This document shows positions 815 through 58,212 of a stretch of DNA of 64,000 nucleotides, one piece after another. Position 1 is the first letter of the stretch; each line of letters starts with the position of its first letter. The notes beneath the pieces are model-generated. The model was not told where the DNA came from, did no database searches, and saw nothing but the letters and a program-made list of their open reading frames with translations. Source of the DNA: Macrostomum lignano. Lineage: Eukaryota. The translations under genes and the position numbers were made by a program. The DNA lies in NCBI GenBank assembly GCA_002269645.1, contig NIVC01000016.1:310001-374000 (forward strand). The letters run 5' to 3'.

Positions 815-3578
<2,764 letters not shown>

Positions 3579-9610: not shown

Positions 9611-29333
<19,723 letters not shown>

Positions 29334-35833: not shown

Positions 35834-37366
35834 ATGTCGTCCGATTGGCAATACGAGGTGTGCATGACTTGTAAAAAATGCAAACAAGGTGGACTCCGAC
35901 CGGATCGACATAAAAACTGCACGAACGTGACGAAGTGGAGTGTCTGCTGGCAGTGCTCAAAGGTTTCTCTATATGAAGCGAAGAAGAGCGCTAAGCAATC
36001 TAAGGCTCATCGGGGTCACCAATTGCTGCCTGGGACTAAAGACACAGCGCGATCTTTTCGACGAATGGTAATGGGAGCGGCGAGGCGACACATGGAGCAT
36101 CAAACGGCGGAAGTGGCAGCAGCCAAGCAGCGATCGAGCGTGCTCAGTCAAGTAATTAATGGTGTAATTCAAGCTCGAAACGACAGCCTATGTTCCAGCG
36201 ATGAGTTCGTAGACGTAAATACTAGAGAACCCTCGATACTTCCTCAGCCAAACAATGGAATGGAAACTGGGACAGCTGACGCAGTGCAAGCCATTGCACC
36301 TATTAGACGTGCTCCATCCATAAGAGGCAAGCAAATGGTTCAAATCGATAGTTCGATGATTGAAGAAGAAGGCGACGAGATGGAGGAGGACATCGAACTT
36401 GACGGCTTTGCTTCTGCTGCTGCTGGTGTCCCGGTTGGCGCCGACTCTGCTGCTGCTGCTGGTGTCCCGGTTGGCGCCGACTCTGCTGCTGCTGCTGGTG
36501 TCCCGGTTGGCGCCGACTCTGCTGCTGCTGCTGGTGCCCCGGTTGGCGCCGACTCTGCTGCTGCTGCTGGTGCCCCGGTTGGCGCCGACTCTGCTGCTGC
36601 TGCTGGTGCCCCGGTTGGCGCCGACTCTGCTGCTGCTGCTGGTGTCCCGGTTGGCGCCGACTCTGCTGCTGCTGCTGGTGCCCCGGTTGGCGCCGACTCT
36701 GCTGCTGCTGCTGGTGTCCCGGTTGGCGCCGACTCTGCTGCTGCTGCTGGTGTCCCGGTTGGCGCCGACTCTGCTGCTGCTGCTGGTGCCCCGGTTGGCG
36801 CCGACTCTGCTGCTGCTGCTGGTGCCCCGGTTGGCGCCGACTCTGCTGCTGCTGCTGGTGTCCCGGTTGGCGCCGACTCTGCTGCTGCTGCTGGTGCCCC
36901 GGTTGGCGCCGACTCTGCTGCTGCTGCTGGTGCCCCGGTTGGCGCCGACTCTGCTGCTGCTGCTGGTATCCCGGTTGGCACTGACTCTGCTGCTTCAAAC
37001 AAAATTCCAGCCGCAGTCACTGATGCAGCTGTTACTGTTGCAAATGGTCATGATGAGCTCAATAAGCTGCTAGCGTCCATCGACCTGCCAACGACGACGA
37101 TGACGCCGGCAAATGTTGCTGATATTAATGAAAATGCTGGTGCTAACTATTTTACTTTAAATCTGCTATTGCCGCACGTGAGTGGAGTGGCTATGTTGTG
37201 CAAGTTGACGGCAATAAAATCACTCTTATCCCGATGTAATTTCCTATTTTATTTTCTCTGTACTCACACAAATTCGTTTTTATTTGGGTTGGTGTGGAGT
37301 GTGGACGTTGGTTACAATATATTAGAACCGTGGGTTGGTAAAGCATTCATGAGGATATTGGAGTAG
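35834..37366 (+). CDS. Polinton cargo ORF: Cys/His-rich N-terminus plus a 36-bp tandem repeat (AAAAGVPVGADS, about 16 copies at 36412-36995)
   Basis: 510-aa ORF with CxxCxxC...H..C...CxxC...HxxH; possible donor GTGAGT near 37178. Function unknown. Confidence 0.45.
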   Translation: MSSDWQYEVCMTCKKCKQGGLRPDRHKNCTNVTKWSVCWQCSKVSLYEAKKSAKQSKAHRGHQLLPGTKDTARSFRRMVMGAARRHMEHQTAEVAAAKQRSSVLSQVINGVIQARNDSLCSSDEFVDVNTREPSILPQPNNGMETGTADAVQAIAPIRRAPSIRGKQMVQIDSSMIEEEGDEMEEDIELDGFASAAAGVPVGADSAAAAGVPVGADSAAAAGVPVGADSAAAAGAPVGADSAAAAGAPVGADSAAAAGAPVGADSAAAAGVPVGADSAAAAGAPVGADSAAAAGVPVGADSAAAAGVPVGADSAAAAGAPVGADSAAAAGAPVGADSAAAAGVPVGADSAAAAGAPVGADSAAAAGAPVGADSAAAAGIPVGTDSAASNKIPAAVTDAAVTVANGHDELNKLLASIDLPTTTMTPANVADINENAGANYFTLNLLLPHVSGVAMLCKLTAIKSLLSRCNFLFYFLCTHTNSFLFGLVWSVDVGYNILEPWVGKAFMRILE

Positions 37367-38859
37367 AAAAAGAAATACTTGTGTGTGTGCACTATCCAAA
37401 TATTAATATTCAAACGAAACCCATATCAGCTTCTGTTTTGCTCGTAATGGTTTTCAGGACTACTTCAAATGCTAGGGTGTGTTGCTATAGGGGATATAGG
37501 TTGATTAAATGGTTTTTATGATGTACTTTTTAGCTAATATAATTGCTTAATAAACTTATCTAATGTTTCGAACTCTTGGTCAGTGTTCTTTAAACTTCTG
37601 CATGCATGCTGCAGTTTCAAATGGAGCTCGCTGCTGTTAATTGTCAGGTAATAAACATTGCATGCCCTACTGAATCAAAATAAACTTGCTAGTAAATTAG
37701 CTACAGTTGTAAGAGCCATTATTCCTTGCCTACTATACTTATACATTGCCTTATAAATACGACTATTTTTTATATTCGATTGAAGAATTCTGTGCCTAAT
37801 AAATATATGTTTTTAGTATTGTTAAGTAGTAAAATAGCATCAATAGTAGCTTTTAGCCTAATTCTGTGTCTTTAATTAGTTTTAATACGTACGCCATTTT
37901 TACCTGTAATACTATAAAAGAGAGAGAGAAAAATAAACGAAGGAGAACTTGCGCTCGTTGGTTTCCTCCGCCTGCCAATTTTAGACTCCGGTCTTGGCCC
38001 CAGCGGTTGTAATTGTTCCAAAAATAGATCTGAATTGGTCTTAGTCATTTAAAGGCGCTCCGCCTCCCCTCTCCCACGGAGCTTCGTACAGCCAGAAGCG
38101 TACAGGCCTCCTTTCCCCACTCTCCCCAGGACGTGCAGTCCCACCCCAAGCCGCTCCCCTTTCCTCCTCTTTCCCAGAGAATATACGTCCCGCCCCTCAA
38201 TCCTCTCCCCTCTTTGTGGACATTCTGTCTGCACAGGTGTACAGCCTTATTCCCTCGGACTTACAGTCTGATCCTCCCCCAAGCATCCCCGCTCCCGACC
38301 CTTCTTCGTAGAAATTTCCCACATTCATTAGGCAGATTGCCTTCTTATCTAATGCTGTCAGCATTCCCTATTAGTATTTAGAAGTTCCCCTTAGTGTGCT
38401 TTCCCAGGCAACTCTGATCCATCGCGAAGCCCTTAATTCCATCTCCCATCTATATTTCCCGGACTGAGAATAGAAACTGTGTCTTGCCGCTCGGACACAC
38501 CACGCCACCAGGAGCAACCTACGGCTTACTCCTGTTAGTAGTATAAATTGCGAAGTTCGCCCGGATTCTAAGAAGACCCTGAAAATTCCAATAACCCTCG
38601 ACTCCCCTTACAACAGATTTTGGTGTCAGAATAGGAAAACTTCCCTCCCCCAAGAACCCTATAACAAATTTGATTGCAGCAGTAAGATTCTTAGACAAAA
38701 AGACCAGAACCCTACAACAGATTTGGTAGCAGCGTTGTGATAAACCACAGGCAGAAGTTTACCCCCTACAACAAATTTGGTGGCAGCGGTGGGATTTGAA
38801 TCTGGTGAAACGCGCACTCAAACCCCAGTATAATTTCCATCCCCTATCCCCGAAATACA

Positions 38860-39873
38860 ATGGCCGCAGGAATCAATGAAGCCCTTGCGCTCTTAGCTGA
38901 AGAGCTCCGCAACCGACTCGAATTAGGCCCCCTTAGACATGTGAAAATCCAGAAATACCTCCCCAGCCAAGATATCAGAGTCTGGCTTACCGCATTCGAT
39001 CAGCAATGCGAGAACGAAGGAATAGATGAGGAAAACCGGAAGCAGGAACTGCTTACCAATCTAGACCTGAGTACTGCGTTTGCAGCAGTTCAACGCCTCA
39101 ACCTCCCAGCTAATCTCCCCTATGAAGATTTCAAGGAAAGACTAATCGAAAGATTTGGAAAAGTAGGTAGCTCCGCCGAATTTCGCGAAGAGTTTAGGAA
39201 TCGCTGCCAAGGCAGAAACGAATCCACTGACAGTTTTGCCGATGCCCTAATAGAATTAGCCTCCCGCGCATTCCTAAATATGGATGCTGAGCAGAGAGAG
39301 GAAGAACTGGTCGAGCAGTTCATTAAAGGTGTAAGAACCCCTCCCGACACCCGTGAGAAGCTAATTTTTGCCCAACCGGCTAGTCTCCAAGCCGCCCGCA
39401 GAATGCTGCGCAGAATTGAAGCTGCTTATCAGATGTCCCACAAAGGTGGAATTAGAGTGACTAAAGATGAGAAAGAGGAGAATAAGGCTAAAACTGATCA
39501 ATTGATCATCAATCAGCAGAACCAGATTGACCGCCAAGAAAGGCTTATTCAGAACCTGCAGAAGCAACTGGCCGAAACAGCGCAATGCGCCCCGCCATCT
39601 CAGGTGTTCCCCCAGCAACAGTATAGGCAGCCACCCCAGCAGCAGTACAGACAGCCACCCCAGCAGCAGTACAGACAGCCACCCCAGCAGCAGTACAGAC
39701 AGCCACCCCAGCAGCAGTACAGACCGCAACCTCAGCAGCAGTACAGGCCCCAGCTGATGAACCAGCCGCCAAGACGTGAACCCCCAAGAAGAAATGAACG
39801 TCAGCCCCCTAACCCAAGATATGAGCCGCTGAAGTTCCGCAACCCCCGTGACTCCCAGAAGTCGGGAAACTGA
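38860..39873 (+). CDS. Gypsy Gag (337 aa), capsid-like domain, no CCHC knuckle, PQQQYRQ repeats
   Basis: W..F..W/L..F-type CA motifs (VWLTAFDQQC, YEDFKERLIERFG, QGRNESTDSF); ends at the slippery site GGGAAAC-TGA. Confidence 0.9.
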   Translation: MAAGINEALALLAEELRNRLELGPLRHVKIQKYLPSQDIRVWLTAFDQQCENEGIDEENRKQELLTNLDLSTAFAAVQRLNLPANLPYEDFKERLIERFGKVGSSAEFREEFRNRCQGRNESTDSFADALIELASRAFLNMDAEQREEELVEQFIKGVRTPPDTREKLIFAQPASLQAARRMLRRIEAAYQMSHKGGIRVTKDEKEENKAKTDQLIINQQNQIDRQERLIQNLQKQLAETAQCAPPSQVFPQQQYRQPPQQQYRQPPQQQYRQPPQQQYRQPPQQQYRPQPQQQYRPQLMNQPPRREPPRRNERQPPNPRYEPLKFRNPRDSQKSGN

Positions 39874-42800
39874 GAAGCCAGGGTCGAGTTAAGAGGCCAC
39901 GCCCCTCAGGCCAAAATATTGCTTACTCTCCGGCCTCCCCATCATTCGAAAATGCCCCCCAACCAAAATACCGGCAACCTCCCCAGTACGGTTTCCGCTA
40001 TCCCCGCAAAACCTCCCATGTACAGCCAATGCCTGTGAATAATGCGATATCTGTCTCCCCCAATAATTTTTCACTTCTTGCCTTTGACGAAATCGACGAT
40101 GCCATGCCAAATGCCCCCCATGACCCCCATGTGTACAATGACCCCCATGCGACTACAGCTCACGCGACTGCTTCCCATGTAACCAATGCGATTTCTGCTC
40201 ATCACGCGTCCGCACCCCATGTACCCACTGCGCTTGCACCCCATGTATCCCATGCGATTAAAACCAATAATGCTTTATTCAGTGCTGAAACCCGCTCAAA
40301 GAAGCGACAAAAGCCAAAACCCAATTCCCCATCCCGAATCGACCTGACTAAGCTAGAAGGCTATGAAGCTGTAATTGTCGGCGATATCCAGAAAGAATCG
40401 ATTGATTTTCTGCTAGACACAGGCGCCAGAAATAATTTCCTGAGCCGCTCAACCTGGTCTAAGCTATTCCGTGCCGATCAAATCCGAGACACTAGCAAAT
40501 GTATCAGTACATTTGACGGTACCCCAGTTCAATTAGAAGGAGAAATATCCGCCCAAGTGAAGTTTGGCGATATCCAAATCGAAGTTGATTTCCTCCTATG
40601 CCGACATGATTGTGACAATATTCTAGGTATGGAATTTTTCCTATCCCAATGCGAAAGCATTCAGCTAGCCAAAGGAATGCTAGTGCTTAATGAAGGTACC
40701 TGTATACCCATGCAGTATACCCGCCTCCCCGTGAAAGTTTGCCGAGTCTATACTCAAGAAAGAGCTATCATCCCAGCTAATAGTGCCCTCCGAATACCCG
40801 TGAAGTTAGCCAAGAATTGTGAATCGAATTACGGCACCCCCATGACCATTGAAGCCATTGGCGATACTGTCCGAACCCGTGATTTCTCATTAGAAATGGT
40901 TCCAACCCTAGTAACTATGAAAGAAGGCAAAGGAATTGTTGAAATTATTAACCGCCACCCAGTAGATGTGAATTTAACTAAAACTTCCCTAATTGGCTTA
41001 GCCAGACCCATGAAGGCTAAAGACTTAACCTATTGGCAGACCCCAACTCCCAACCCCCAACCCCCTGCGAAAGTCAACCAGACTCAATGTACTGAAGATT
41101 CCTGGATTAATGAAGTGAGCCTTGGCCCTGAACTGTCAGATGAACAGCGAAAAGCAGTCATCGACTTGATGAAAGAAAACCGTGAAGCCTTTTCCCAGAA
41201 TGAATTAGACATGGGCCTGACACACTTAGTAACCCACGAAATCTCTATCAAAGACCCCACCCCCGTTAGAATCCCAGCCAGACGCATCCCCCCACACTTG
41301 CAAAAGCAAGTTGACGCCCAATTAGATGACATGCTAGCCAAAAACCTAATTAGACCCTGCTATTCAACCTACTCCACCCCCTTAGTAATTGTCCCCAAGA
41401 AAGACGGTTCTATTAGAATCGTGAGCGATTTCCGAGTGCTCAATTCAAGAGTTAATTACTACCCCTACCCCCTCCCTAATATTCAAGAGACCTTCTCCCA
41501 CCTAACTGGTAGCCAATACTTTAGTAGCCTTGATTTAAACTCAGGATACTGGCAAGTCCCCATCAAAGAAGAAGATAAGCATCGAACCGCCTTCTCCACC
41601 CTAACTAGAGGCCAATTTGAATATCAAGTGATGGCCCAAGGACTTTCCAATGCCCCCGGAACCTTCCAACGCCTAATGAATTTAGTCCTATTAGGAATCC
41701 AGCATAAGTTCGCCATGTCCTATATCGATGACATAATCGCCTACTCCCAAAATTTTGCCGACCATTTAGAGCACTTAAGAGAAGTGTTTAAGCGACTAAT
41801 TGCCGCAGGTCTGAAGTTGAGACCCAAAAAGTGCAATCTTTTCCATCACGAGTTGAAATATCTAGGACACGTGATTGGCCGAAAAGGCATTCAAACAGAC
41901 AAGACGAAGATTGAAGCAATCCAAACTTGGCCCCGTCCCAAAGACGTAAAAGAATTACGCAGTTTTCTTGGCCTATGCAATTATTATTGCCGATTCGTGA
42001 AGAATTATGCCGAAGTGGCTCACCCCCTATTTCAACTGACCCGAAAAGGAGTTCAGAATTTCCAATCTAAGTGGAGCAAAGTGCATGACGAAGCCTTTGA
42101 ATCCCTGAAGCAGCGCATGATGTCTACTGAAGTGTTAGCCTACCCCGAATATGTCGAAGATGAGAATGTGAAGATGGTGCTCGACACAGATGCCAGTGAC
42201 GACAGGATTGGCGCATGCCTTGGCCAAATCCAGAGTGATGGCATAGAGCGACCAATAGCCTATTTTAGTAGAGCAATGAAAGAGTCTGAGAAGCGATACC
42301 CCATTACTCGGAAAGAATTGTTAGCCCTTGTCGACGCTATGAGGCATTTCAGATTTTATCTGATCGGCAAGAAATTCTTAGCCCGAACTGATCATAAAGC
42401 GATAATTTGGCTCATGAGACAGACAGAAGCAACCGGAATCCTAGGAAGATGGATAGAGCGCCTAAATGAATTCAGGTTCGACATTGAACACAAAAGCGGC
42501 GCAAAGCATTCCAATGCCGACGGATTGTCGAGAAGACCAGCTGAGATAGCTGAAGCCCCTGAAGTATCCCCTGAAGTAGCCCCTGAACTTGCTGAAACAG
42601 CACCTGAAGTTTCTGAAGTCCCTGACGCAGCCACTGAGCCTGCTGAAGCGATCCTTGAAACCCCTGAAGTATCTGAAGTAATTTCTGAGAACCCTGAGCC
42701 AATCCCTGAGAAAGTTGAGAAGTTGACCCCTGTTCCCCTGAGAGATGAGAGTGCTCCCGCTGAAACTAAGGACAACCCCATGTCCCAGTCACCTGAAGCC

Positions 42801-44702
42801 CTGACAGAAAGCGAGACCCAGCTTGAATATCCCAAATCTAGGACAAAGCTAATTGTCTCAGGAAGAGAAGTAGATGAAAGAGAAGAAGAGACAGGAAAGT
42901 GTGAGAAACTATTAACTGATTATCTTCCCAGCCCCCTGAAGAAAGAACAAATTCTAGAAGCCCAAGCTGCTGACCCCATCATTAGAGCTCTATTAGAAGC
43001 TAAATCCCAGAAACTGAGCCAATTTCCCAAAACACCGGACGTGCCAGAAAAGATCAGTAAGCATTATGCACTGATGAAAATCGATAACGAATTATTAACA
43101 ATTGCCGAAGACGGAAAAACCAAAATTGTTTTGCCCCCATCCTTAGATAAAGCAGTCTTTACTGACCTTCACTGCAGCCCCCTCGCAGGACATTTAGGAA
43201 GAGATAAGACGCTCCAGAGAATCCGAGAAAGATTTTGGCGACCTGGACTAAGCACTTCAGTTGAGCAATTAATTGCTGAGTGCATCCCCTGCCTTGAGAG
43301 CAAGAAAGGACACTTTGTCCAGGCCCCAGTCCAGTCATTCCCCATTGGCGAAGCATTTAGCCGCCTGCACATAGATATTATCGGTCCAATTTCTAAAGAA
43401 AGCAAACGAGGTCATAAATATGTCCTGACAGTTGTTGATAGTACAACTAGATACCCCTTCGCTTTTCCCATTAGAAACCAAAAGTCAGACACAGTTATTA
43501 AGATACTACTTGAACGGATAGTAGCAGAATATGGACAGCCCACCTGGATCCACACAGACAATGGAAAAACTTTCGCTAGTAAACAATTTAAAGCTTTTTG
43601 CGAACTTTATAATATTCGCCACACCTTCACTACCCCCTACCATGCCCAATCTAATGGCTTAGTAGAACGGTTTAATAAGCAAGTCAAGTCAATCATCACC
43701 TGTCTGATCAATAAGGATCATGGTGATTGGGATTTACTAATTCCAGCAGCCCTAGTAGCAGTCCGCACCAGCCCCAATTCAACCACAGGTTTTTCCCCTC
43801 ACTTCCTATTATTTGGCAGAGAAGCCACCTTACCTCTAGACACTCAGATCAGAAGTACAGCAGAACACGCTGATTATCCCGCCTACATTACTAAGCATGC
43901 CGAAAGATTAGAGGAAGCTCATAAGATAGTCAAGAAGAAGTTAGAAAAAGTAGTAGAGAAAAGACAGACCGCCGCTGAAACCAATAAGCTCCCCCCGAGA
44001 GTCCCCATAGGTTGTCTAGTTTTAATTAATAACCCCCAGTTAGATAGCGAAGAATCCCACAAGTTCCACCGAAAGAAGAGATCCGCCTTTAGAGTTTTAG
44101 CCCAACTATCAGAAGTGGTTTTCAAAGTCCAGAAAGAAGAAGAAGGAGAATTAGTAGGAAAAGAAATGCTCGTGCATCGAGATAACTTAACTCCAGTCCC
44201 GAACTCAACCCCAGAACAAATCACTAAGGAAGGCCAGCGAGATGCCCCTGATTCCGCCCCTGTTCCCATCCCCACTTCCGCTAAACCTAAGAGACAACCT
44301 GTAATTAAGGAAGGCCAACCCCGCCGAAATTCCCAAAAATTAATCTTGCCCGAACCAGTTGAATCTGAAGAAGAATCCGATGAAGAAGAAATTAATTGGA
44401 GATGCCAAATTAGAGAAGCAGAGAACGAAGAGTTAGAAGAAGGAGACAATGAAATCCAGCCAGAAGAATGGAGTGAAGCCCAAGCAGAGGAAGCGAATGA
44501 AATGACCGATGAGTCAGAGAGTGAGGCCCCGAACGAAGAGATCCCTGAGCCCCAACCCCCCTCTCCTGCCCCGCGAGATCCCGAACCCCCGCGCCGTCAC
44601 CCCTACAATTTAAGGCCCCCACCCCAAAATAAACAGCGTTGCAACTGCCATCTAGACAGACTACTAATAGCACTAAACCTCTTGCGCAACTTAGAATTTT
44701 AG
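39864..44702 (+). CDS. Gypsy Pol (PR-RT-RH-IN), expressed in the -1 frame from gag
   Basis: PR LLDTGA, RT YIDD, RH DTDASD..E..D, IN HHCC (HCSPLAGHLG..CIPC) and DDE (HIDII, TDNG, VERFN). The frame is open from 39864 through ATG 40029 to 44702. Confidence 0.95.
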   Translation, partial: GKLRSQGRVKRPRPSGQNIAYSPASPSFENAPQPKYRQPPQYGFRYPRKTSHVQPMPVNNAISVSPNNFSLLAFDEIDDAMPNAPHDPHVYNDPHATTAHATASHVTNAISAHHASAPHVPTALAPHVSHAIKTNNALFSAETRSKKRQKPKPNSPSRIDLTKLEGYEAVIVGDIQKESIDFLLDTGARNNFLSRSTWSKLFRADQIRDTSKCISTFDGTPVQLEGEISAQVKFGDIQIEVDFLLCRHDCDNILGMEFFLSQCESIQLAKGMLVLNEGTCIPMQYTRLPVKVCRVYTQERAIIPANSALRIPVKLAKNCESNYGTPMTIEAIGDTVRTRDFSLEMVPTLVTMKEGKGIVEIINRHPVDVNLTKTSLIGLARPMKAKDLTYWQTPTPNPQPPAKVNQTQCTEDSWINEVSLGPELSDEQRKAVIDLMKENREAFSQNELDMGLTHLVTHEISIKDPTPVRIPARRIPPHLQKQVDAQLDDMLAKNLIRPCYSTYSTPLVIVPKKDGSIRIVSDFRVLNSRVNYYPYPLPNIQETFSHLTGSQYFSSLDLNSGYWQVPIKEEDKHRTAFSTLTRGQFEYQVMAQGLSNAPGTFQRLMNLVLLGIQHKFAMSYIDDIIAYSQNFADHLEHLREVFKRLIAAGLKLRPKKCNLFHHELKYLGHVIGRKGIQTDKTKIEAIQTWPRPKDVKELRSFLGLCNYYCRFVKNYAEVAHPLFQLTRKGVQNFQSKWSKVHDEAFESLKQRMMSTEVLAYPEYVEDENVKMVLDTDASDDRIGACLGQIQSDGIERPIAYFSRAMKESEKRYPITRKELLALVDAMRHFRFYLIGKKFLARTDHKAIIWLMRQTEATGILGRWIERLNEFRFDIEHKSGAKHSNADGLSRRPAEIAEAPEVSPEVAPELAETAPEVSEVPDAATEPAEAILETPEVSEVISENPEPIPEKVEKLTPVPLRDESAPAETKDNPMSQSPEALTESETQLEYPKSRTKLIVSGREVDEREEETGKCEKLLTDYLPSPLKKEQILEAQAADPIIRALLEAKSQKLSQFPKTPDVPEKISKHYALMKIDNELLTIAEDGKTKIVLPPSLDKAVFTDLHCSPLAGHLGRDKTLQRIRERFWRPGLSTSVEQLIAECIPCLESKKGHFVQAPVQSFPIGEAFSRLHIDIIGPISKESKRGHKYVLTVVDSTTRYPFAFPIRNQKSDTVIKILLERIVAEYGQPTWIHTDNGKTFASKQFKAFCELYNIRHTFTTPYHAQSNGLVERFNKQVKSIITCLINKDHGDWDLLIPAALVAVRTSPNSTTGFSPHFLLFGREATLPLDTQIRSTAEHADYPAYITKHAERLEEAHKIVKKKLEKVVEKRQTAAETNKLPPRVPIGCLVLINNPQLDSEESHKFHRKKRSAFRVLAQLSEVVFKVQKEEEGELVGKEMLVHRDNLTPVPNSTPEQITKEGQRDAPDSAPVPIPTSAKPKRQPVIKEGQPRRNSQKLILPEPVESEEESDEEEINWRCQIREAENEELEEGDNEIQPEEWSEAQAEEANEMTDESESEAPNEEIPEPQPPSPAPRDPEPPRRHPYNLRPPPQNKQRCNCHLDRLLIALNLLRNLEF

Positions 44703-45079
44703 CCCGTCTACACCTTCCTACCCCTCCCTCGCCGTCCCCATTCGCCCAACAGACCCCAAATTTTAGACAAAGAGAGCCCTCGACTAGACCCTTGCTATAC
44801 ACAAAGGACCCCTCGAATTATCGATCGACAAAGAAACTAGAGCCCAAAGAGCGTAGAAAAATGAGGTTGGTCACGAAAACAAGAGGACCTCCCTGGTCTG
44901 TGAACAATAGTCAGTAAATATAAGCATTTTTAGGCCGTTGCACAATCAGATCCCAAGCCTCCTGCTCTCCAAAATTCCCGAATCCTCCGCAATCATTACT
45001 GTCAAGCCCGACTTTTAAAATTTCTACTATCCAAGCGATTTTTAAGACCCTATACTGATCAAGCAATCAGTCCCCAATC

Positions 45080-46075
45080 ATGTACTCCGAGGAGAGTCTT
45101 AGGCAATTAGAGGATGACCTCCGCCTCAGCGATTCTGACGCTGATGAGTTCGACGACGAATCAGATAGCGACTTGCCTGTCCCCGAGCGCCAGCCTACGA
45201 GACCAAGTAAGCCCGGTCCCAAGCCCCGCATCGCCTCGGTTGTGACCCGTCCTCCGCCATCCACCTCAAACGCCTGCCCACCGTCATCCGCCTCAGACGC
45301 CTGTCCTCCGCCATCCACCTCAGACGCCCGCCCGTCGCCATCCATCTCGGAAGCTCGAGTAGCACTGCTCAAGCGTCACGCCGACGTGCCAGTTGCTATC
45401 TCCCCGGCCGCCATTCAACGCCAACCCCCCAACACCAAGTCGGCTATCGTTTTGAGCACGAGTGAAGCCCCGCCGCCGCCCATCCGCAAGAGACTTGGAC
45501 CCCGTCCTTCATCAGCGCAACAAGAGTCTCGACCCCGCTCCCGATCTCCGCCGAAGCAGCAGCCTGTGAAACCTCTTGTCACCCCGCCGCCGAATTATGG
45601 AGTACGGCCGATGAACCAGCCGCGTCCCCGCCCCGTTCCGCCGATCAAAATGGAGCCACTGGATTCTGGCATACCGCCCCTGATGGCCGGCTTTGTCAGG
45701 CAGGATCAGCCGCTGCGCGAAATCGGCGGTAACTTCACACAAGCTGTTGAGAGCCTGCCGGAGGCTCAGCGTGCCAGCTACCGCCGCCTGATTACGGCCA
45801 TTAAGCTGTACTTGGTTCAGGCTGGAAGGTTTCGAGACGGACGCGAATTCCCACAGCGCGAGACTCTGCGGCCAGTTTTAAATAATCTGCGCCAACTGCA
45901 GCCCGTGCACGCAGTCGCTGCTTGGAGGCGCGCTGTGCACTACGCACTATCGGACCTTCGTCGCGGCCCTCGACGTTTCAACGAGCAGAGCCTCGGCCTC
46001 GAAATTCGCTGGCTCGGCCAGGAGTGCGGCTTGCCGTATCGTAATCAACTGCCAAGCGAGTTTAATATGTTTTAG
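45080..46075 (+). CDS. Gypsy ORF3, unknown non-Env accessory protein (331 aa)
   Basis: Intact ORF between pol and the PPT with an acidic N-terminus, a Pro/Ser/Arg-rich disordered middle and a helical C-terminal domain. No signal peptide or TM segment. Shares motifs with the degenerate ORF at 54009-57620. Confidence 0.8.
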   Translation: MYSEESLRQLEDDLRLSDSDADEFDDESDSDLPVPERQPTRPSKPGPKPRIASVVTRPPPSTSNACPPSSASDACPPPSTSDARPSPSISEARVALLKRHADVPVAISPAAIQRQPPNTKSAIVLSTSEAPPPPIRKRLGPRPSSAQQESRPRSRSPPKQQPVKPLVTPPPNYGVRPMNQPRPRPVPPIKMEPLDSGIPPLMAGFVRQDQPLREIGGNFTQAVESLPEAQRASYRRLITAIKLYLVQAGRFRDGREFPQRETLRPVLNNLRQLQPVHAVAAWRRAVHYALSDLRRGPRRFNEQSLGLEIRWLGQECGLPYRNQLPSEFNMF

Positions 46076-47669
46076 TAGCATTTGACATTCATTTTGCATG
46101 CGTAAAACTTTTAGATACATCATTTTGTCTCCATAATCTACGTTTTAATTTTGTGTGTATTGTTCATTATTGCTTTATTAGTACTTTTTGAAAAATTTTC
46201 ACTCATTACTCATTCAAATTTTTCAAGCCAGGAAGGCCAATTGTAAGAGCCATTATTCCTTGCCTACTATACTTATACATTGCCTTATAAATACGACTAT
46301 TTTTTATATTCGATTGAAGAATTCTGTGCCTAATAAATATATGTTTTTAGTATTGTTAAGTAGTAAAATAGCATCAATAGTAGCTTTTAGCCTAATTCTG
46401 TGTCTTTAATTAGTTTTAATACGTACGCCATTTTTACCTGTAATACTATAAAAGAGAGAGAGAAAAATAAACGAAGGAGAACTTGCGCTCGTTGGTTTCC
46501 TCCGCCTGCCAATTTTAGACTCCGGTCTTGGCCCCAGCGGTTGTAATTGTTCCAAAAATAGATCTGAATTGGTCTTAGTCATTTAAAGGCGCTCCGCCTC
46601 CCCTCTCCCACGGAGCTTCGTACAGCCAGAAGCGTACAGGCCTCCTTTCCCCACTCTCCCCAGGACGTGCAGTCCCACCCCAAGCCGCTCCCCTTTCCTC
46701 CTCTTTCCCAGAGAATATACGTCCCGCCCCTCAATCCTCTCCCCTCTTTGTGGACATTCTGTCTGCACAGGTGTACAGCCTTATTCCCTCGGACTTACAG
46801 TCTGATCCTCCCCAAGCATCCCCGCTCCCGACCCTTCTTCGTAGAAATTTCCCACATTCATTAGGCAGATTGCCTTCTTATCTAATGCTGTCAGCATTCC
46901 CTATTAGTATTTAGAAGTTCCCCTTAGTGTGCTTTCCCAGGCAACTCTGATCCATTGCGAAGCCCTTAATTCCATCTCCCATCTATATTTCCCGGACTGA
47001 GAATAGAAACTGTGTCTTGCCGCTCGGACACACCACGCCACCAGGAGCAACCTACGGCTTACTCCTGTTAGTAGTATAAATTGCGAAGTTCGCCCCGGAT
47101 TCTAAGAAGACCCTGAAAATTCCAATAACCCTCGACTCCCCTTACAACAGATTTTGGTGTCAGAATAGGAAAACTTCCCTCCCCCAAGAACCCTATAACA
47201 AATTTGATTGCAGCAGTAAGATTCTTAGACAAAAAGACCAGAACCCTACAACAGATTTGGTAGCAGCGTTGTGATAAACCACAGGCAGAAGTTTACCCCT
47301 ACAACACAGTGAAAGTGAGTTTTCAAAGTTTTTGCTTTACTTCTTTATAAAAAAATGGATCTAGATAAGTACGCTCATAGATAAACAGATTCTGTGTGAT
47401 TTGATTCGCAAATTAAAAAAATCAGTGGATTTTTTTTGAATAATAATTTAAAGTGGCATGTCTGTTAGACAACTGTATAACGCTTTTAATTGCAAGCTCT
47501 TAGCGCGAATAAGTAAACTTAATCATTAAATTTGCATATTTAAATGAAAAATTAAAAATTAATTAAAAATTAAAAATTAAAGTAACTAGGAGTACCTTCA
47601 GCATGCTCACTGTTAATCAAAATAGTTCGCATTATAATCATAAACTACATGATGAGGGATGTGCCAAAG

Positions 47670-48441
47670 CTAAACCTTTCTTAAGTCTTTTTCATCCACC
47701 CAGCCTGTCGAATCGTAGCCGGCCCACTTGACAAGATAGCGAATTTTCCCTCTTTGCTTTTGTGTCTTCAACACTTTCTCAATCACGTATAGTCGCTGTG
47801 AGTCCGGCACCGCCTGCAGCTCGTGCTCGTGAAAGAGGCCTTGAATCTCTTCTCCCTTCATGTCTCGGATCTTGTACATGTAAGGATAATGTTTCGGAGC
47901 TTTTGCAACTACAGTGTACACTTCCTCACTCCAGTTTGCTTTGTACCCTTTTCTGAATAGCCGGGGCGCGTTAGAAATTCTTAGTTTGATTTTCACTGAA
48001 CTTTGGTTTCCTGACTTTATCCAAAGTTTCTATTGCCTTGCCATCATACAGGTTCATCCACACTTCCGACTCATTTTGCTTGCAAACATTTCTTGGCGCC
48101 ATTCTGATGCTTCTGTGAAAAGTAGCATTGTACGACTTCACTAACTTTGGTAGCACATCGATGCATGTGAGGATATACTTGTATCCGTGATTGTACTTTG
48201 CGAACGGAATCATTTCTACCAGATCCAGTTTCCACTGATCATCCATAGCTCGAACTACAATTGGTGCTCGGGGATAGTTTCTTCTTGATGGCTTGTGTAA
48301 AGTGTAAACTGCCTGTTCGTTAAGCCAATTCTTAACAGATTTTTCTCCCACTTTGATACCTTGTTTTCGAGCCTCATTCAGAAGTTTGTTGCAACCAGAA
48401 AAACAGGCAGGCTGCTCGGGATTAAAGAATATCTTTTCCAT
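47670..48441 (-). pseudogene. Polinton integrase with C-terminal chromodomain, internally deleted and frameshifted
   Basis: YTLHKPSRRNYPR..QWKLDLVEM..YKYILTCIDVL joined directly to PKLVKSYNATFHRSIRMAP; frameshift near 47985; then FRKGYKANWSEEVY..YKIRD..GLFHEHELQ..IEKVLK..YLVKWAGY. Confidence 0.9.
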
Positions 48442-48932
48442 TTGCTAAAAAAATCAACTGAGACAGCTTTCTTTCTTAAATGCTTAAGGGCCTGCGACGA
48501 AAAAAGTTTGAAAGAACAACAGTGTATTTTACATGCAGTAACATATATACGCTAAAGCAAGCATTCAGCGGAGCACAACACAGTGAGCATTTACTTCAGT
48601 GATTCGATTCAGAACAGTTACAGACAAAAGAAAGGAAACTGAGTAAAGTTTAAATGAAATCAAGTTGTTAGTCAAATTGTTGAAAATGAAGTCACGCGAA
48701 CTTCTGAATAAATTTTGATTTTTTACCACAATTTTTTTCTCGATTATTATAATTTTTATATGCGCATGGTAATCAAAGAAATACAAAATGCGAACTATCG
48801 CTGTCATTTAAAAACAAGTTCACTCATCATCTTCGTCCGAGTTCGGCAGCTCGTCGCGGGGCATCCACCTCGGCCTCTTGACCGCATCCTGCCTGCGCAG
48901 AGCCCACGGTTGCTTGCGCTTTCTGCTGTTGT

Positions 48933-49525: not shown

Positions 49526-50715
49526 GATTCACGTGAAGTCTTCAGAGATAAAAAAGTGAAGTATGATCTTAAAAATGCTTTTCAAAGCTGGCCCTTTTAT
49601 ATCCTCATGGCGGAGTGGGGTGGGTGAATGCTAGGAAAGGGTTGGCCAGTATACATTAGCCTCCCCCACTCCAGATGCACAGCACTTCACACTGCAGGCA
49701 CAGTGCTGGGCTGATTTCAATTCAAGCAAGCATATTACAAACATAAAACAGCAGCGGCTCCACCCAATTTCAGTGGCTTTCCCTGCGACAGAGTGCACCA
49801 ACGCATTTACATAGGCGCTGTGTTCACACACTAGACAGCGATAGTTCGCATTTTTTGCAAAAAAGAAGCTCCAGGCCGAAAGAGTAAGCAAACAAAAACC
49901 TGCGAATTGGCAAATTTTTAAAAGCAAAAATGATTTTGCTCTTCTACTATGCATAAATGATTAAAAAACAGTTGCATTTCTATACCATCTCAAAAGTCAG
50001 ACACAGCCATATACATGCACAGTATACGCGCAGCACCACTATTTATTTTATTCATATGCGCTTCTCGTTTTCTGCTCCTACCGCTGCTTTATGCTTACAT
50101 GAAATCCTATACATGTAGTTGCAATGCTCATCCTTCCCCCATACCTGGTACTCAGCGAAGGCTTGTAAGTTTTAGGCGATCAGGGCTCTAGGAGCCATCT
50201 CTCCAGTACGTAAACCAGTGACGGAATTTCCACGGAATTTCCTGCGGCCGTGTTCTGCTAACTCCTACTACGTATAGCGATTCGCTGCATCTCGACTGTC
50301 TAATGACCTTGGGCATGATCGAATGACGTGCAAATCAAGTCGAACTCGCCGGATGTTACTCCTGAAATCTCACCATTCGGCATAGCTCCGTAGTTAAATA
50401 GAGGCAGAACTTCTGCCACTGTAGTTGGCTCTGCGTCAGCCATGGCGATTTCGTTTGCGTAAATGAAAGATGCAAGCAATCAAATCTGCTGTCTTTCTAC
50501 TCAGCTCTCTTATCCCTTCTGTCTCCCTTTTTATGGGGTCAAAAAACTACAGTGCTTATTAATGTCGATGTGGGCCATAGACTAAAATTTATTTAAATTT
50601 TATTGTAAAAAGTGGGAGCTTTGCCCCCACATCCCCATTATCACTCTCCCCACCTCGACTCCTTCCGGCATCAACTAATGCCATAGACGAAAGCGCATAG
50701 CAATGTTTCTACTGC

Positions 50716-50851: not shown

Positions 50852-51072
50852 ATAAGAATATATCATTGAGGACCAAAATATCGCAAAATTTCATCCAATA
50901 AATTGGAAGAACCTGCGGGTGGAATCTGTCGGCGAAGTGACGAATGAAGAGCTTTTGGACTTCTTGAACTTTAGATACGTAAAATACTTCCGATTTTCCG
51001 ATTTTTCTGAAACTTTTAGAGGGTGTCCAAAATAATAATTAAGAAAAAAACTACAAAAAATACCCTCAGAGG

Positions 51073-51911
51073 TAACTCGAGCTCGATTTGTTAATCTATG
51101 TTATTAGTGATGTAACTCGAGCTCGATTTGTTAATCTATGTTATTAGTGATGTAACTCGAGCTCGATTTGTTAATCTATGTTATTAGTGATGTAACTCGA
51201 GCTCGATTTGTTAATCTATGTTATTAGTGATGTAACTCGAGCTCGATTTGTTAATCTATGTTATTAGTGATGTAACTCGAGCTCGATTTGTTAATCTATG
51301 TTATTAGTGATGTAACTCGAGCTCGATTTGTTAATCTATGTTATTAGTGATGTAACTCGAGCTCGATTTGTTAATCTATGTTATTAGTGATGTAACTCGA
51401 GCTCGATTTGTTAATCTATGTTATTAGTGATGTAACTCGAGCTCGATTTGTTAATCTATGTTATTAGTGATGTAACTCGAGCTCGATTTGTTAATCTATG
51501 TTATTAGTGATGTAACTCGAGCTCGATTTGTTAATCTATGTTATTAGTGATGTAACTCGAGCTCGATTTGTTAATCTATGTTATTAGTGATGTAACTCGA
51601 GCTCGATTTGTTAATCTATGTTATTAGTGATGTAACTCGAGCTCGATTTGTTAATCTATGTTATTAGTGATGTAACTCGAGCTCGATTTGTTAATCTATG
51701 TTATTAGTGATGTAACTCGAGCTCGATTTGTTAATCTATGTTATTAGTGATGTAACTCGAGCTCGATTTGTTAATCTATGTTATTAGTGATGTAACTCGA
51801 GCTCGATTTGTTAATCTATGTTATTAGTGATGTAACTCGAGCTCGATTTGTTAATCTATGTTATTAGTGATGTAACTCGAGCTCGATTTGTTAATCTATG
51901 TTATTAGTGAT
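51073..51911. repeat. Perfect 40-bp tandem array, about 21 copies
   Basis: Unit GTAACTCGAGCTCGATTTGTTAATCTATGTTATTAGTGAT; no spacers. Confidence 0.98.
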
Positions 51912-52199: not shown

Positions 52200-53412
52200 T
52201 CGTTGCGACTACTAGCCGTACATTCTGCCAGAAGCTCCATCCTCAGCATCCTGCACGCTGGACACCCGGGTATCGTCAAGATGGACCTTAAAGCCAAAGA
52301 CTACTTCTACTGGCCATGCAGGAACGCGCAACTGCATCGAGCGGACTGTTAGCCAGTGCGAGGCCTGTCAGCGGAACATGAAGGCGCAGTCGGAGACTCT
52401 GATGACCATTGATATGCCTGAGTTCCCGTTTCAAGTTTGCTCTACCGACCTGTTCGAGTACCGCGGTGCAACCTATCTGGTGTACGTGGACGCCTACAGC
52501 CACTGGATGAGCGTCACCCGACTGCGCTCGACGACCAGCAACGCCGTGGTGCAGGTGCTCCAAGACCATTTCCAGAACTTTGGTGTGCCTGAGAAGCTCA
52601 TCAGTGATAACGGTCCGCAGTTCTCGGCCGGGGAATTCCGCCAGTTCATCAAAAGATTTCAAGTGGAGCACCGCATGTCGAGTCCAACCTACCCGCAGTC
52701 GAACGGCAGAGCAGAGCGATATGTGCAGACATCCAAGAATATGATGAAGAAGTGTCAGGAGACTGGTCAGAGCCTGGCCATGGCCCTTCTGCACTATCGC
52801 AACACGCCAGTCGGTAGCGGCTTTCCAAGTCCCGCAGAAATGGCGTTCGGCCGCAAACTCCGGTGCGATTTGCCTACAGCGGTGCAGGATCTGCGGCCTC
52901 GGGAGACCCCCGTGCACGCCAGCATTGAAGCCTTTGAGAAGCAACGGACCCAAGCAGCTCAACTCTACAATCGCGGTGTCCGCGCACTGCAACGCTTGAA
53001 GGTCGGCGAACCGGTCTGGCTTTAATGCGGTCGCCGAGATTGGGCGGCTGCCGAGGTAGACAACGAAGTTGACGGCAGCCCAAGGTCCTACTGGCTTCGC
53101 ACCGAGTCGGGACAGCTACTCCGGCGTAATCGGCGGTTCATGCGGCCTCGTCAGATTGGCGTTCCGTTCTATGAGAGCTACCCGGAGGCCGGCGAGGATG
53201 GCGAGATGGAAGCGAATGTGCAGCCGGCACCTGTGCAGCCGGCACCTGAGCAGAGGGCACCTGTGCAGCCGGCACCTGTGCAGCCGGCACCTGTGCAGCC
53301 GGCACCTGTGCAGCCTGACCAGTCGGAGTGCTCCGGTTCGGAACAGCCTGGATTCCGAACCAGGCGAGGTCGACTCGTACAACAGCCAAAGCGGTACCAG
53401 GCCTCGTGGTGA
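52200..53412 (+). pseudogene. Gypsy (Mag/K02A2.6-like) integrase relic
   Basis: LHAGHPGIVKM..YFYWP / CEACQ (frameshift); TDLFEY..VDAYS..SDNGPQF..PQSNGRAER; premature TAA at 53023-53025; tail RSYWLRTESGQLLRRNRR..RTRRGRLVQQPKRY. Confidence 0.88.
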
Positions 53413-53849: not shown

Positions 53850-56800
53850 ACCACTCCGGTGGAAGCGCCTGTAGGACCTGTACATGTTGGTAGGCCTGCT
53901 AGGAATCGTAGGCAGCCTGATAGGCTAATCGTTAATCATAGGGCCAAAACGTATGTTAGCAGAATCGCCCGCATCCGTGCACAGAATAAAACGCATTACA
54001 GCTTAGCGATGTCTCGCCTTCCTAACAAGCGCACTGAGCGCTCGCCGCCGACAGAGGACGAAAACCGATCGGCCAATCGTCGGGTTCGATACGTGGCCAC
54101 CTCTGTCCCAAACCTGCCGGCCCAAGCGATCGGCGCCGCGGCTGGGCAATATGAACCATTCGGAGGTTCTCCGGATGCGCCTCGGGTGCCGGTCCGCCTA
54201 AGACTAGGGTATCACCCGACCGCACGGCCGACGTTGCCGCCGCCAGGACATCGCTCTCCGCCGCCCGAGCGTCGACCGCTGATGGAAATTCTGCGTCTTG
54301 ACTTAGCTGCAGGGTGGTCCGTAGACACAGTGGGGAGGCGAGGGTCGCCCATTCCGCTAGCCCCTGAAGGCCCGCAGACAGGCAGAGGCGTGGGGCCGGT
54401 CAGGGTGGTCCGCCGGTCCGTCCTGCAGCGTGATCTTCCGTTGGGAAGAAACTGGCTCGTCTAGTCGCCCGAAGGAACTGGATGAGCCGTGGGATGCTGT
54501 CGGGCTGGCAGACCTCGTCAATGGACGGGTTCGGCCCGAGGTAGCGTAGCCGGTCTCTGTTAAAGAAAGGGCAGTGACAAACAAAGTGCTGAGCATCTTC
54601 ATTGTCGTACTCACAAAAGGGGCAAAGTTCGCTCTCGAGGTCACCTCGGAGGAAGCAGTGCCTGGCGAGGTAGCCATGGCCAGTAAGGGTCATGACAAGG
54701 GCTCGAATATCCTTCCGATTCTGGTTCAGAAGGATGTTTCTGAGCCTGCGAGACGGGCAAGGAACCGCGGCACGAGATTGCCGGCAGTTTTGAGTGCCCG
54801 CCCATCTGTCCCTGTGGAGGGAGTCAGCCCAGTCGTCGATCTGACGATTGATGACTGTCAAGGGCATAGGGACCAGGGTGGCAGGGCCGAAGAAAGAGCC
54901 AGAGCCGCCCCTCTTGGCGAGGGTGTCTGCCAGCTCGTTCCCCGGAAAGCCTGCGTGCCCCGGGATCCACTTCAGCCTGACAGTATTGCTACTGGCCAGG
55001 AGGTTGAGCTGCCGGGCGCAGTCGGCGACTGTCCGGGAGTTCGTTGTGGTGTGGCAAAGGGCCTGTAAGGCCGCTTGGCTGTCGGAGTGGATGACAATAG
55101 TGTTTCCTCTCGTACCCTTGGCATTCAGCTCTGCAGCGCAAGAGCTGATGGCAAGGACTTCGTTCTGGAAGACAGTGGAGAGTCTACCAGTGTGCTGGGC
55201 ATGCGTGGCAATTACGCGGCCGTCGATGATGATGCAGACCCCAAAGCCGGCGCGACCGTCTTTGATGGATCCGTCCGTGTAGCAATGGATCTCCTGGAAT
55301 TTCCAGTGGTCATTTGCAGCATCCCTAGAGGGGATGGTGACCTTGTAGCGCTGAAAGAGGTTGAGAGTGCGGGGTTCGCCGTCAGATAGGACGTGGAGCC
55401 CGCCGCTGTCTCTCAAGTCCTTGAGGCATAGGTCGGCGTGGGGCAAAAGCTTGCGCTTCGCCATGGCCCTATTGGGGCTGGATTCGAATGCCAGCGTCAG
55501 CTAGACGGCGGGCAGTCTTAGCCGCTTCCCTGCGGACAAAGATGTCCAGCGGAGGAATGTTGAGGAAGGCGTTGAGGCCATCGTAAGGAGCAGACGGAGG
55601 GGCGCTCATGATCATGCGACATGCGCGCCCTTGCGCTCTCCCGAGAGCCTCTAGACAGGTCTTTACCTGCAGGGCGCTAGCCCAGATCAGGCCGCCATAC
55701 GAGATAGCGGGCCTAACCATTGCAGTGTAGATCCACCAGAAGCGCTTGGGGGTAAGTCCCTAGGTGGTGCCGACAGCCCTGCGCAGTTGCGCAAGGACTG
55801 CAAGGGCCCTCTTGGCTTTCGCTTGAATGTAGGGCGACCAGTTTAGCCTGTGGTCCAGGGTAATACCTAGACATTTAGTCTGCTTGCAGAAGGGGATTTC
55901 CCTTCCGTAAAGCGTGAGCGGCCGAATCTGCCACTTGGTCCTGCTGGTGAACATGATCGCTGCGGTCTTAGTCTCAGAGAGCCTTAAACCACAGCGGTCC
56001 GCCCATTGCTCAGCGGCGTAGATGAGGTTCTGAAGAAGGTCCCTGAGGGTCTCAGGGGACGGACCAGATGCCACCGCGGTGACATCGTCCGCATATCCAA
56101 CTTTCAGAATGGGGTCAGGCCGAACATCCCGGAGGAGCTCATCGATGACCATATTCCAGAGAACTGGAGACAGCACCCCACCTTGCGGGCTACCTTTGCA
56201 GACGGGGACCGTCCTCTGGTAGCCCAGCAGACTGGCGGTGGCCGTGCGATGGCTGATCATGTACATGATCCATCTGGTGAGATGTGAGTGCGTTTGCCTC
56301 TCACGAAGAGCTCTTCGGAACGCCTCAAAGAGGACGTTATCGAAGGCGCCAATGATGTCCAGGAAGATCCCCAGAGCAAAGCCATTACCAAGCACGGCCT
56401 TCTCGAGTTTATCGACCAGGACATGCAGCGCGCTTTCAGTGGAGCGACCCGCCCGAAAAGCGTGCTGGTTCTCGCTGAGAGGTTTGTTCTTCAGCTCAAC
56501 AGAGTCAAGATGGAAATTCTGCGTCAGGAGCCGAGATGGGGCCAGAGGCACAACCGCCCCCCCCGGTGCCCCCCGCGGGGATCGAGTCAACCCCACGGGC
56601 GAGGGAGACTCCGCCTCACTTCGACTCCTGCGCACCGCTCCGACGCCGAGCTCCGCTGCCGGCATGATGCCTCCTAGCGAAGCGATCGGGCTGACTCTGG
56701 CCCAAGTCCGCTGGCAATTGGCTGCGCAGGGTGCCACTGCGACTCACGCTCCGCAAGCATCAGCTCCTAGTCCTCCAGCTCCGAATGCCATGGTCGTCGA

Positions 56801-58210
56801 CCCGACTCCACCGGTGCCGGGACCAAGGGCGCCGACGCAAAAGGCCGAAGCTATGACTCCACCCTGGCCTGGCCAGACTAACGTCTGGAACCGGCCTTCC
56901 CGCCTAACAGCAGCAGCACGCCACTGTCCCGGAGGACGCCCGGCCGGAGAGGCAGGATGCAGCGGCTCAGACCTCCGACCATGAGTTTACCGAGGACAGC
57001 TTTCCCACCTACTCGTGGAGCCAGCTCGCTGATGAACTGAGAGCTGCTTGTCCAGCGGCGCTTCCCAACTCGCCGCAGCCAGCTTTCACGGAGGACGCCG
57101 CCATCCAGTTTGTCAGCACGGGAGCATCCGGGCTGGATGTCGCCGGTATAGTCGGCTCAGGAGCATCCGGCCTGGACGTCGCAGGTACAGGAGCATCCGG
57201 CCTGGACGTCGCCGGTGTAGCCGGCACTGGAAGGTTCGGCCAGAACGTCGCCGGTCTAGTCGGCTCAGGAGCATCCGGCCTGGACGTCTCCGGTGTAGCC
57301 GGCTTGGGAGCGGACGGCCGGGGCATCATCGGCCTGACTGGCGGCCAGGCGCTGATTGACCAAGGGGCCACTTATGTCGCCGGCCTACTGGTCATGGCGG
57401 CCCAAGCCGGGGAGTGGCCCGACTTCGTGAAATGGCCGCACTGGGACCGGCTGCGTAGCCTAGCGGATGGTGAACGCCAGGTCCTGATGAACAGTGCAGC
57501 CCGGCTCGCTCGTAGCGAGCTGGCACAGCCACGGCACCCGGAAGTTCTGCACGCGGTCACCGGTCTCATCATCCGCGCCATCGCAGGCCGCGCACCGGTG
57601 ATGCCGGACATTATTGCTAGGTCCTGTGGAAATCAGAAAAAACAATCAACAGCAACTCGCATGACAATTGAATTCAGGACATTGCCCAGGGTGCTCCCAC
57701 CTCCCGAGCCTTCGGCTCAGCCGGGCACCGGCATGTCAAAGGGCCCCTTTTGCTCACTTGCATTTGTTCTCGGTGCTGTATTTAGGCGCCTGTTTTCTGC
57801 GGGCTGGCGCCCCCGCTTCTATTTAGGGCTTCATTACGGCCTTCGCTCAGCTGAAATTGCCATAAAAACGGTTGCGGCGGATTACGTTGCTCCCTTTTGC
57901 GCCGTTTGTGAGCGCCCCTTTCTCTTGCTCCACACTTACTTAGGCCTCTGCTCATTGTTCAACGGCAATCCACCATGTTTAGGCGCTACTTTCTCAGGGC
58001 TGGCGCCCCCTCCCATGTTCTAATACTCAAGGGCTGCAAGGGCCTTGGCCAAGCCATTGCGTCATTGTGACAATACCATATTTTTGCCAAAGACCCATCT
58101 CTTTCCTTTATCAAATTAAATTTTACTATTTAGCTATTTTATTAAATAAAGCGCGCTTCGCTTTCACTCCGCCTCTTCATTTGAACGGGGAGAGTGTAGT
58201 CGCACCTTTA
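53850..58210 (+). mobile_element. 3' portion of a second, degenerate Gypsy element (IN tail, ORF3 homologue, PPT, start of LTR)
   Basis: IN-tail-like RPARNRRQPDRL (about 53895); ORF3-like sequence from ATG 54009 to about 57620, split by a LINE and frameshifted; PPT GAACGGGGAGAG (58183-58194) followed by TGTAGT. Confidence 0.6.
54298..56508 (-). mobile_element. 5'-truncated non-LTR retrotransposon with RT + RNase H + C-terminal CCHC (LOA/Lian-like), pseudogenised
   Basis: 17-bp TSD GATGGAAATTCTGCGTC at 54281-54297 and 56509-56525; RT motifs QHAFRAGRST, FLDIIGAFD, GSPQGGVLSP, YADD; RNase H YTDGS..E..SDSQAAL..WIPGHAG..NELAD; W to TAG at 55762-55760 and a frameshift near 55466. Confidence 0.93.
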
Positions 58211-58212
58211 CC

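Follow-up and report, generated by a model that had tools for sequence, protein, structure and literature searches.

The Ty3/Gypsy retrotransposon Cer1 of C. elegans carries, in the position of a third open reading frame (ORF3), a sequence described as part of CERV, which is needed for export of the genomic RNA (PMC10309623). Third ORFs that do not encode envelope (Env) proteins are reported downstream of pol in LTR elements of bdelloid rotifers, where they are patchily distributed among families, are common to unrelated lineages, and are typically expressed from spliced messages (PMC5408684). Plant LTR retrotransposons are also described with extra ORFs, of unassigned function, located after pol and ahead of the 3' LTR (PMC11963269, PMC7264820). 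Outside the retrotransposons, the herpesviral proteins ICP27, ORF57, and EB2 are described as having a disordered N-terminus and an ALYREF-binding motif beside a basic NLS-like patch (PMC6177440, PMC3017119), with a globular C-terminal domain in ICP27 and ORF57 (PMC6177440) and a leucine-rich NES in ICP27 (PMC3017119). EB2 and ORF57 are further reported to bind RBM15-family proteins (PMC10111866).

The locus described here lies within a 64,000-nt stretch of Macrostomum lignano DNA (the window) and has, like the rotifer and plant elements, an additional ORF in the interval from pol to the 3' LTR. Its host, element A (Table 1), is identified as a Ty3/Gypsy LTR retrotransposon by its LTRs with a target-site duplication, primer-binding site (PBS), polypurine tract (PPT), and PR-RT-RH-IN order. 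The element is young, as an earlier reading made from the DNA letters (the sequence-only reading) had held: its LTRs differ in 4 alignment columns, and the CAGT target-site duplication is present. The closest Pol is also from M. lignano, with 87% identity in RT-RH and 63 to 67% overall. We take element A to be Gmr1/Osvaldo-like, from its motifs and a by-eye reading of published consensuses, and its PBS is presumably of the tRNA-Leu type; there is no tRNA gene in the window.

Table 1. Features of element A, ORF3, and element B, in window coordinates
Feature	Position	Strand	Remarks
Element A, whole	37708-47306	+	LTR pair, CAGT target-site duplication, gag, pol, ORF3
5' LTR, element A	37708..38773	+	1066 nt, TG...CA; preceded by CAGT target-site duplication
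Primer-binding site, element A	38778..38796	+	TGG...; 4 nt past 5' LTR
gag, element A	38860..39873	+	337 aa; Retrotrans_gag match weak, below cutoff
pol frame, element A	39852..44702	+	PR-RT-RH-IN by Pfam; overlaps gag end
pol-ORF3 spacer	44703..45079	+	Unstructured; unscored TATAA, initiator-like, ATG, and AG acceptor signals
ORF3	45080..46075	+	331 aa, intact
NES-like pattern and LSDSD, ORF3	45098..45139	+	Leucine-rich pattern (residues 7-16) overlapping LSDSD (16-20), acidic N-terminus
27-nt tandem repeat in ORF3	45254..45348	+	3.5 copies, in frame, within disordered region
Hydrophobic-x-x-R-L-G, ORF3	45482..45499	+	Residues 135-140 IRKRLG, basic; followed by RSRSPP
Five-helix C-domain of ORF3	45713..46024	+	Residues 212-315, net charge ~+8; predicted by AlphaFold2
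PPT, element A	46230..46241	+	Short purine-rich tract ahead of 3' LTR
3' LTR, element A	46242..47306	+	1065 nt; followed by CAGT
Integrase, element B (decayed Gypsy)	52216..53412	+	In-frame stop at 53025
Element B post-integrase ORF, 5' piece	54009..54297	+	ATG 54009; Pro/Arg-rich; VRLRLG at 54192, RSPP
5'-truncated non-LTR retrotransposon (LINE)	54298..56508	-	RT and RNase H; inside element B ORF
Element B ORF, remaining pieces	56509..57627	+	Different frames; QAG helical domain at 57403 in frame 56908-58023

Each LTR of element A contains three internal units resembling an LTR end plus PBS, spaced by ~52 nt, before the true end (38609-38796 and 47143-47306); these units may have been left behind by repeated extension of the LTR, or they may serve as decoy primer sites. 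The only tie between ORF3 and this array, with which it had been suggested to act, is membership of the same element. The 1.07-kb 5' LTR has a TATA-like site and AATAAA near its 5' end (AATAAA at LTR positions ~91 and ~225), a placement that would make U3 very short and U5 unusually long; near 38540 there is another TATA-like site. Within gag, a 24-nt tandem repeat (39610-39746) encodes Q/P/Y/R-rich units.

Several other repeats and genes surround the element. A 429-nt repeat, 96% identical and inverted, lies on either side of it (34916-35344 and 49854-50271). Upstream, the plus strand has a 514-aa frame (35822-37366) that contains a 36-nt tandem array, is Cys-rich at its N-terminus, and matches FAM76 weakly, below cutoff. 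Also upstream, the minus strand has a gag-protease of BEL/Pao type (DUF1759; 30877-33711) whose downstream frames have decayed; a 281-nt direct repeat lies close by, with copies at 30379 and 33742. Downstream, a fragment at 47971-48444 (minus strand) has no above-cutoff Pfam match and presumably, judged by eye, resembles a Polinton/Ginger-type integrase. Pieces of a Tc1/IS630-like DDE transposase (58150-58755 and 59880-60362) are separated by ~1.1 kb of other sequence, the second piece lacking a DDE match, and the end of the window (60944-64000) contains duplicated and inverted segments with 23-nt repeats, along with short arrays of TTAGGG that occur in both orientations. Exons at 815-2035 (minus strand) and 15615-17985 (plus strand), which by eye we take to be host exons of a C2H2 zinc-finger protein and a carboxypeptidase-like protein, belong to genes whose introns are full of minisatellites. 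The window has no canonical heat-shock element.

ORF3 runs as previously read, on the sense strand, from an ATG at 45080 to a stop codon ending at 46075, following the pol stop (44702) and preceding the PPT and 3' LTR (46242). It is not a chance frame: when the 1539-nt interval was block-shuffled 5000 times, 331 stop-free codons appeared in 2 cases, and the remaining five frames of that interval contain 9 to 14 stops each. We regard ORF3 with high confidence as a real functional gene. The acidic N-terminus (net charge -12 over residues 1 to 32) and the Pro/Ser/Arg-rich stretch (residues 33 to 198) proposed for its product are both present, and residues 133 to 331 are Arg-rich, with a net charge of +18. 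The first two-thirds of the protein are disordered. GC3 is 0.63 in ORF3 versus 0.44 in pol, which would fit a separately acquired module. The spacer upstream of ORF3 contains TATAA (44919) and an initiator-like TCAGAT (44946), 27 nt apart. It also has one ATG (44861) ahead of the ORF3 start and several AGs that could act as acceptors; nine donor-like GT[AG]AG matches also lie upstream of ORF3, and all of these signals are unscored. Folding of the spacer is no better than that of shuffles (z +1.16). In the scan for response elements, 4 of 158 windows had a folding z below -2.5 and Rfam gave no match; no clear candidate for a structured response element emerged.

Modeling of residues 199 to 331 with AlphaFold2 from the single sequence yields five helices, in line with the helical C-terminal domain anticipated in the sequence-only reading. 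The mean pLDDT is 72.5 (70 to 72.5 over the five models) and the pTM 0.68, and ten-residue blocks of the core average 79 to 92; these scores are good evidence of a folded domain. Neither ORF3 nor its C-domain matched any Pfam family, including Gag, capsid, and matrix domains, and the profile test for a known Env, Gag, or host domain gave no ORF3 match. For the C-domain, phmmer returned nothing at E ≤ 0.001, and no host homologue, among 1.84 billion representatives; a word-seeded search left 0 of 208 candidates (protein lengths 182 to 580) at E ≤ 10; the ESM Atlas was blank; and PHROGs and NCBIfam gave nothing save a sub-cutoff ODC_var row. No relative was found in phage genomes, among 530 candidates from prokaryotic genomes, or in 131 Pol proteins, and an exact look-up did not place the exact family of element A among the annotated M. 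lignano proteins found. For eukaryotes, the ORF3 searches covered annotated proteins, those of M. lignano included. A 35-residue match between the C-domain and uteroglobin fusions among PDB sequences (E 0.006) was rejected. The protein thus still appears to be unnamed, as had been claimed, no search made having returned a named family.

In the structure searches, Foldseek returned nothing for the C-domain at E ≤ 0.001, and the top fold score, to the Gle1 CTD (VIA Z 8.5, rmsd 4.2, 126 aligned), is in the usual range for helical bundles. A relation to Gle1 would suit a role in export, but we rejected it because this Z value falls within helical-bundle noise and Gle1 is missing from the list for the corresponding domain of element B. 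Chains of ICP27, matrix, capsid, and Rev-like proteins are not near the top of the fold-search lists, which excludes nothing. On the predicted model, the C-domain is apparently a new small helical domain.

Downstream of element A lies a decayed Gypsy element (element B), which we take to be Mag-like from its motifs and by-eye reading and for which no LTR pair was found. The integrases of the two elements are 24% identical, and no alignment of their DNA was found, as previously noted. In element B, a spacer of ~600 nt separates the integrase from the start of an ORF at 54009, which is interrupted by a LINE with a 17-bp direct duplication on its two sides (54281 and 56509). The frame at 57403, to which ORF3 had been compared as though it were an ORF, proves not to be intact: it is a stop-to-stop frame with its first Met at the QAG block and represents the 3' piece of the disrupted ORF. 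The broken ORF occupies the same post-integrase position as ORF3, a correspondence absent from the sequence-only reading. Its helical domain is predicted with less confidence than that of ORF3 (pLDDT 59). For this domain, a word-seeded search gave 0 of 335 candidates, the Atlas and the Foldseek viral set were blank, and a DUF7706 match (E 0.018) fell below that family's cutoff. In-frame tandem Gly/Ala/Ser-rich repeats (57121-57311) lie just upstream of the domain, and a perfect 40-nt tandem array of 21 copies (51072-51911) lies just upstream of the integrase remnant.

The resemblance between ORF3 and the element B ORF is borderline by sequence alignment. The QAG block aligns without gaps, as reported, with 7 identities in 27 positions, but the rest of the C-domain alignment, which had been described as gap-free, needs gaps (anchor offsets 10, 10, 17, and 16); selection on a folded domain had been deduced from that by-eye alignment, which is too borderline and gapped to carry it. 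BLASTP of ORF3 against the element B frame gives an E value of 0.017, and the score is attained by 87 of 5000 shuffles. For the trimmed domains, five scoring schemes were applied with 3000 shuffles each, of which 12, 22, 47, 316, and 31 attain the local score; the global score is attained by 125 to 1097 of 3000, and hhalign reports a probability of 1.6% (6 of 200 shuffles). Against shuffled controls, the likeness is borderline pairwise (P ~0.004 to 0.03) and not significant window-wide, where 92 of 100 shuffled queries equal the score and three unrelated frames exceed it.

Other evidence comes from outside this alignment. The N-terminal parts of the two proteins align independently at P-[IV]-R-x-R-L-G...RSPP, with 74 of 3000 shuffles reaching the score. 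Helix boundaries also match: in both models the helices stop at QAG and S[DE]L, restart past a shared Pro, and span GLxIR. In a fold search of 48,161 chains, 20 of the top 50 entries are common to both domains, including all of the top 9 for element B, and several of these neighbors are hit over near-identical target ranges, although such overlap could arise between any bundles alike in topology. Because position, helix boundaries, fold neighbors, and a second motif coincide, homology of the two ORFs is likely. They would then probably constitute one ORF3 family, defined from two sequences of which one is broken.

The second motif suggests a function. The pattern hydrophobic-x-x-R-L-G (phi-xxRLG) occurs in the disordered region of ORF3 and in element B (54192) and is missing from the Gag and Pol of element A. 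Its chance occurrence by shuffling is 0.028 in ORF3, 0.066 in the element B pieces, and 0.0018 jointly, a figure that overstates the case because such motifs are short, were noticed after the fact, and belong to one of many classes that could match. Background frequencies are 24 matches in 182,446 residues and 18 in the 127,996 residues of the six-frame window translation. As described in a preprint (PMC13370473), the pattern defines type 1 ligands of the ALYREF RRM and resembles viral ligands; the data there are for the human or mouse protein. HSV-1 ICP27 is reported to contact REF via V104, W105, R107, and L108 (PMC3017119); in ORF3, an Arg replaces the key Trp. The acidic N-terminus contributes an LSDS[DE] motif, expected by chance at 0.0014 over the whole of ORF3 and 0.02 within residues 1 to 32, and acidic LSD motifs are described as ligands of the SPOC domains of SPEN and RBM15, the latter of which aids viral RNA export (PMC10111866). 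The element B pieces contain neither an LSD motif nor an N-terminal NES-like pattern. A PTB-binding PRI motif was considered, since both ORFs read RLGxxP, and was rejected because the published pattern is unmet; PDB peptide searches with the two motif regions returned nothing useful.

The sequence-only reading had proposed a retroelement-encoded accessory factor, for example an RNA-binding or export protein or a silencing suppressor. The export option is the part that gains backing, in the form of an ALYREF-type sequence motif in both ORFs. We tentatively suggest, at a probability of roughly 0.4, that ORF3 encodes a nuclear export adaptor for the element's own full-length RNA, a reading favored by the RLG, NES-like, and LSD motifs, by the layout shared with ICP27 and ORF57, and by the precedent of CERV in Cer1. 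The protein would be made from a subgenomic mRNA, either spliced or internally initiated, would enter the nucleus via the basic patch at residues ~135 to 156, and would bind element RNA through its Arg-rich parts. The RLG motif would then dock on the ALYREF RRM, the LSD motif, if phosphorylated, possibly also docking on a SPOC domain of the RBM15/SPEN type, and unspliced genomic RNA would be passed to TREX/NXF1, with Gag and Pol made as a result. In a broader and more doubtful form, distant Macrostomum Ty3/Gypsy lineages might share a mobile module with a novel domain that has converged on the ICP27 strategy (an ALYREF-binding RLG motif, a SPOC-binding LSD motif, and an NES) for export through TREX/NXF1.

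Ordered by our confidence, the readings of ORF3 are export adaptor, trans-activator or anti-silencing factor, captured passenger or chance resemblance, packaging helper, and Env. The next after export is a factor that would use its helical domain to bind either the LTR or a chromatin protein and its acidic N-terminus to activate or to recruit, with ORF3 possibly expressed from an internal promoter by a logic like that of plant TRP28. Foamy-virus Tas has a comparable trans-activator logic. An acidic N-terminus joined to a basic helical domain would suit such a factor, as would the TATAA and initiator-like pair ahead of the ORF3 ATG; LSD motifs are said also to recruit SPEN/SMRT-type regulators (PMC10111866), and the extra ORFs of plant Retand have been proposed to be DNA-binding regulators (PMC11963269). 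However, Pfam shows no convincing DNA-binding or chromatin-reader domain, the 5' piece of element B is not acidic, and the RLG motif, kept in both elements outside the folded domain, points to RNA processing. We consider this role unlikely. If ORF3 were instead a passenger that had been captured, or an orphan acquired independently, with its motifs and its likeness to element B due to chance and no family behind them, this would account for the window-wide shuffles, the mostly nonsignificant global alignments, and the low hhalign probability, and it would agree with the elevated GC3; moreover, element A is too young for decay to show in ORF3. This reading is nonetheless improbable given an intact 331-codon frame with a well-folding domain, the way in which position, the N-terminal motif, helix anchors, and fold neighbors independently agree, and the lack of a host homologue among the representatives searched.

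Slightly more improbable still is a role in the cytoplasm, as an RNA chaperone or a helper in packaging, through which ORF3 would supply a nucleic acid-binding activity missing in Gag. Pfam finds no zinc knuckle in the Gag of element A, and the Arg-rich part of ORF3 could fill that place, but this Gag has a basic C-terminal tail of its own, ORF3 has no Gag, capsid, or matrix domain by sequence, and its nuclear-type motifs would be left unexplained. An Env or Env remnant, which only the position of ORF3 favors, is exceedingly improbable and can be regarded as largely refuted. The protein has no furin site (R-x-[KR]-R) and, judged by hydropathy (best 19-residue value 1.0) and its acidic N-terminus, no TM helix or signal peptide, all as previously read; with no such site, no hydrophobic stretch, and 3 Cys in total (one of them in the C-domain), it is not an Env. 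It also has one N-glycosylation sequon and no match to an Env profile in Pfam, and a spliced leader with a signal peptide would still leave it without a membrane anchor.

If ORF3 is indeed an export adaptor, it would be an analogue of CERV and not a homologue. CERV, a 517-aa protein joined by splicing to exons of gag, is described as containing a Cys-rich loop as well as H and M domains and a GTPase-like G domain (PMC10309623), whereas ORF3 has its own ATG, one predicted all-helical domain of ~105 residues, and no Cys cluster. The likeness to ICP27 and ORF57 would be an analogy only, between a retrotransposon and herpesviruses: ORF3 shares the arrangement of a disordered N-terminus, a predicted ALYREF-binding motif beside a basic patch, an NES-like pattern, and a C-terminal domain, but it has no ICP27-homology domain by sequence (Pfam and PDB), its C-domain is far smaller, and its translation contains no RGG box. 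The rotifer ORF3s are described as captured GDSL esterases or DEDDy exonucleases or as TM/coiled-coil proteins (PMC5408684), none of which ORF3 of element A matches, and the Retand ORFs are described as antisense with a TRP28 domain (PMC11963269), whereas ORF3 lies on the sense strand and matches no Pfam family. A survey of M. lignano reports 137 families and, in the parts examined, does not discuss extra ORFs; three of six of its consensuses (id38, id55, and id115), judged by eye, have no room for a post-pol ORF, and so ORF3 is not universal among such elements (PMC12801592). We found no description of the ORF3 protein in the literature; an earlier M. lignano classification paper or repeat libraries such as Repbase or Dfam may contain one. 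Non-Env third ORFs are thus already known, and this protein family appears to be undescribed.

On how LTR retrotransposons without Env export their unspliced RNA, and on what unexplained third ORFs do, CERV is the one worked-out case in the literature found. Were the motif reading wrong, ORF3 would be one more orphan third ORF. Should it hold, ORF3 would join CERV as a second export factor encoded by an element, one whose docking site on the host is predictable, and would add an apparently new small helical domain and an instance of module sharing between distant Gypsy lineages. It offers a six-residue, testable link to a host export adaptor in a flatworm in which transgenesis is available.
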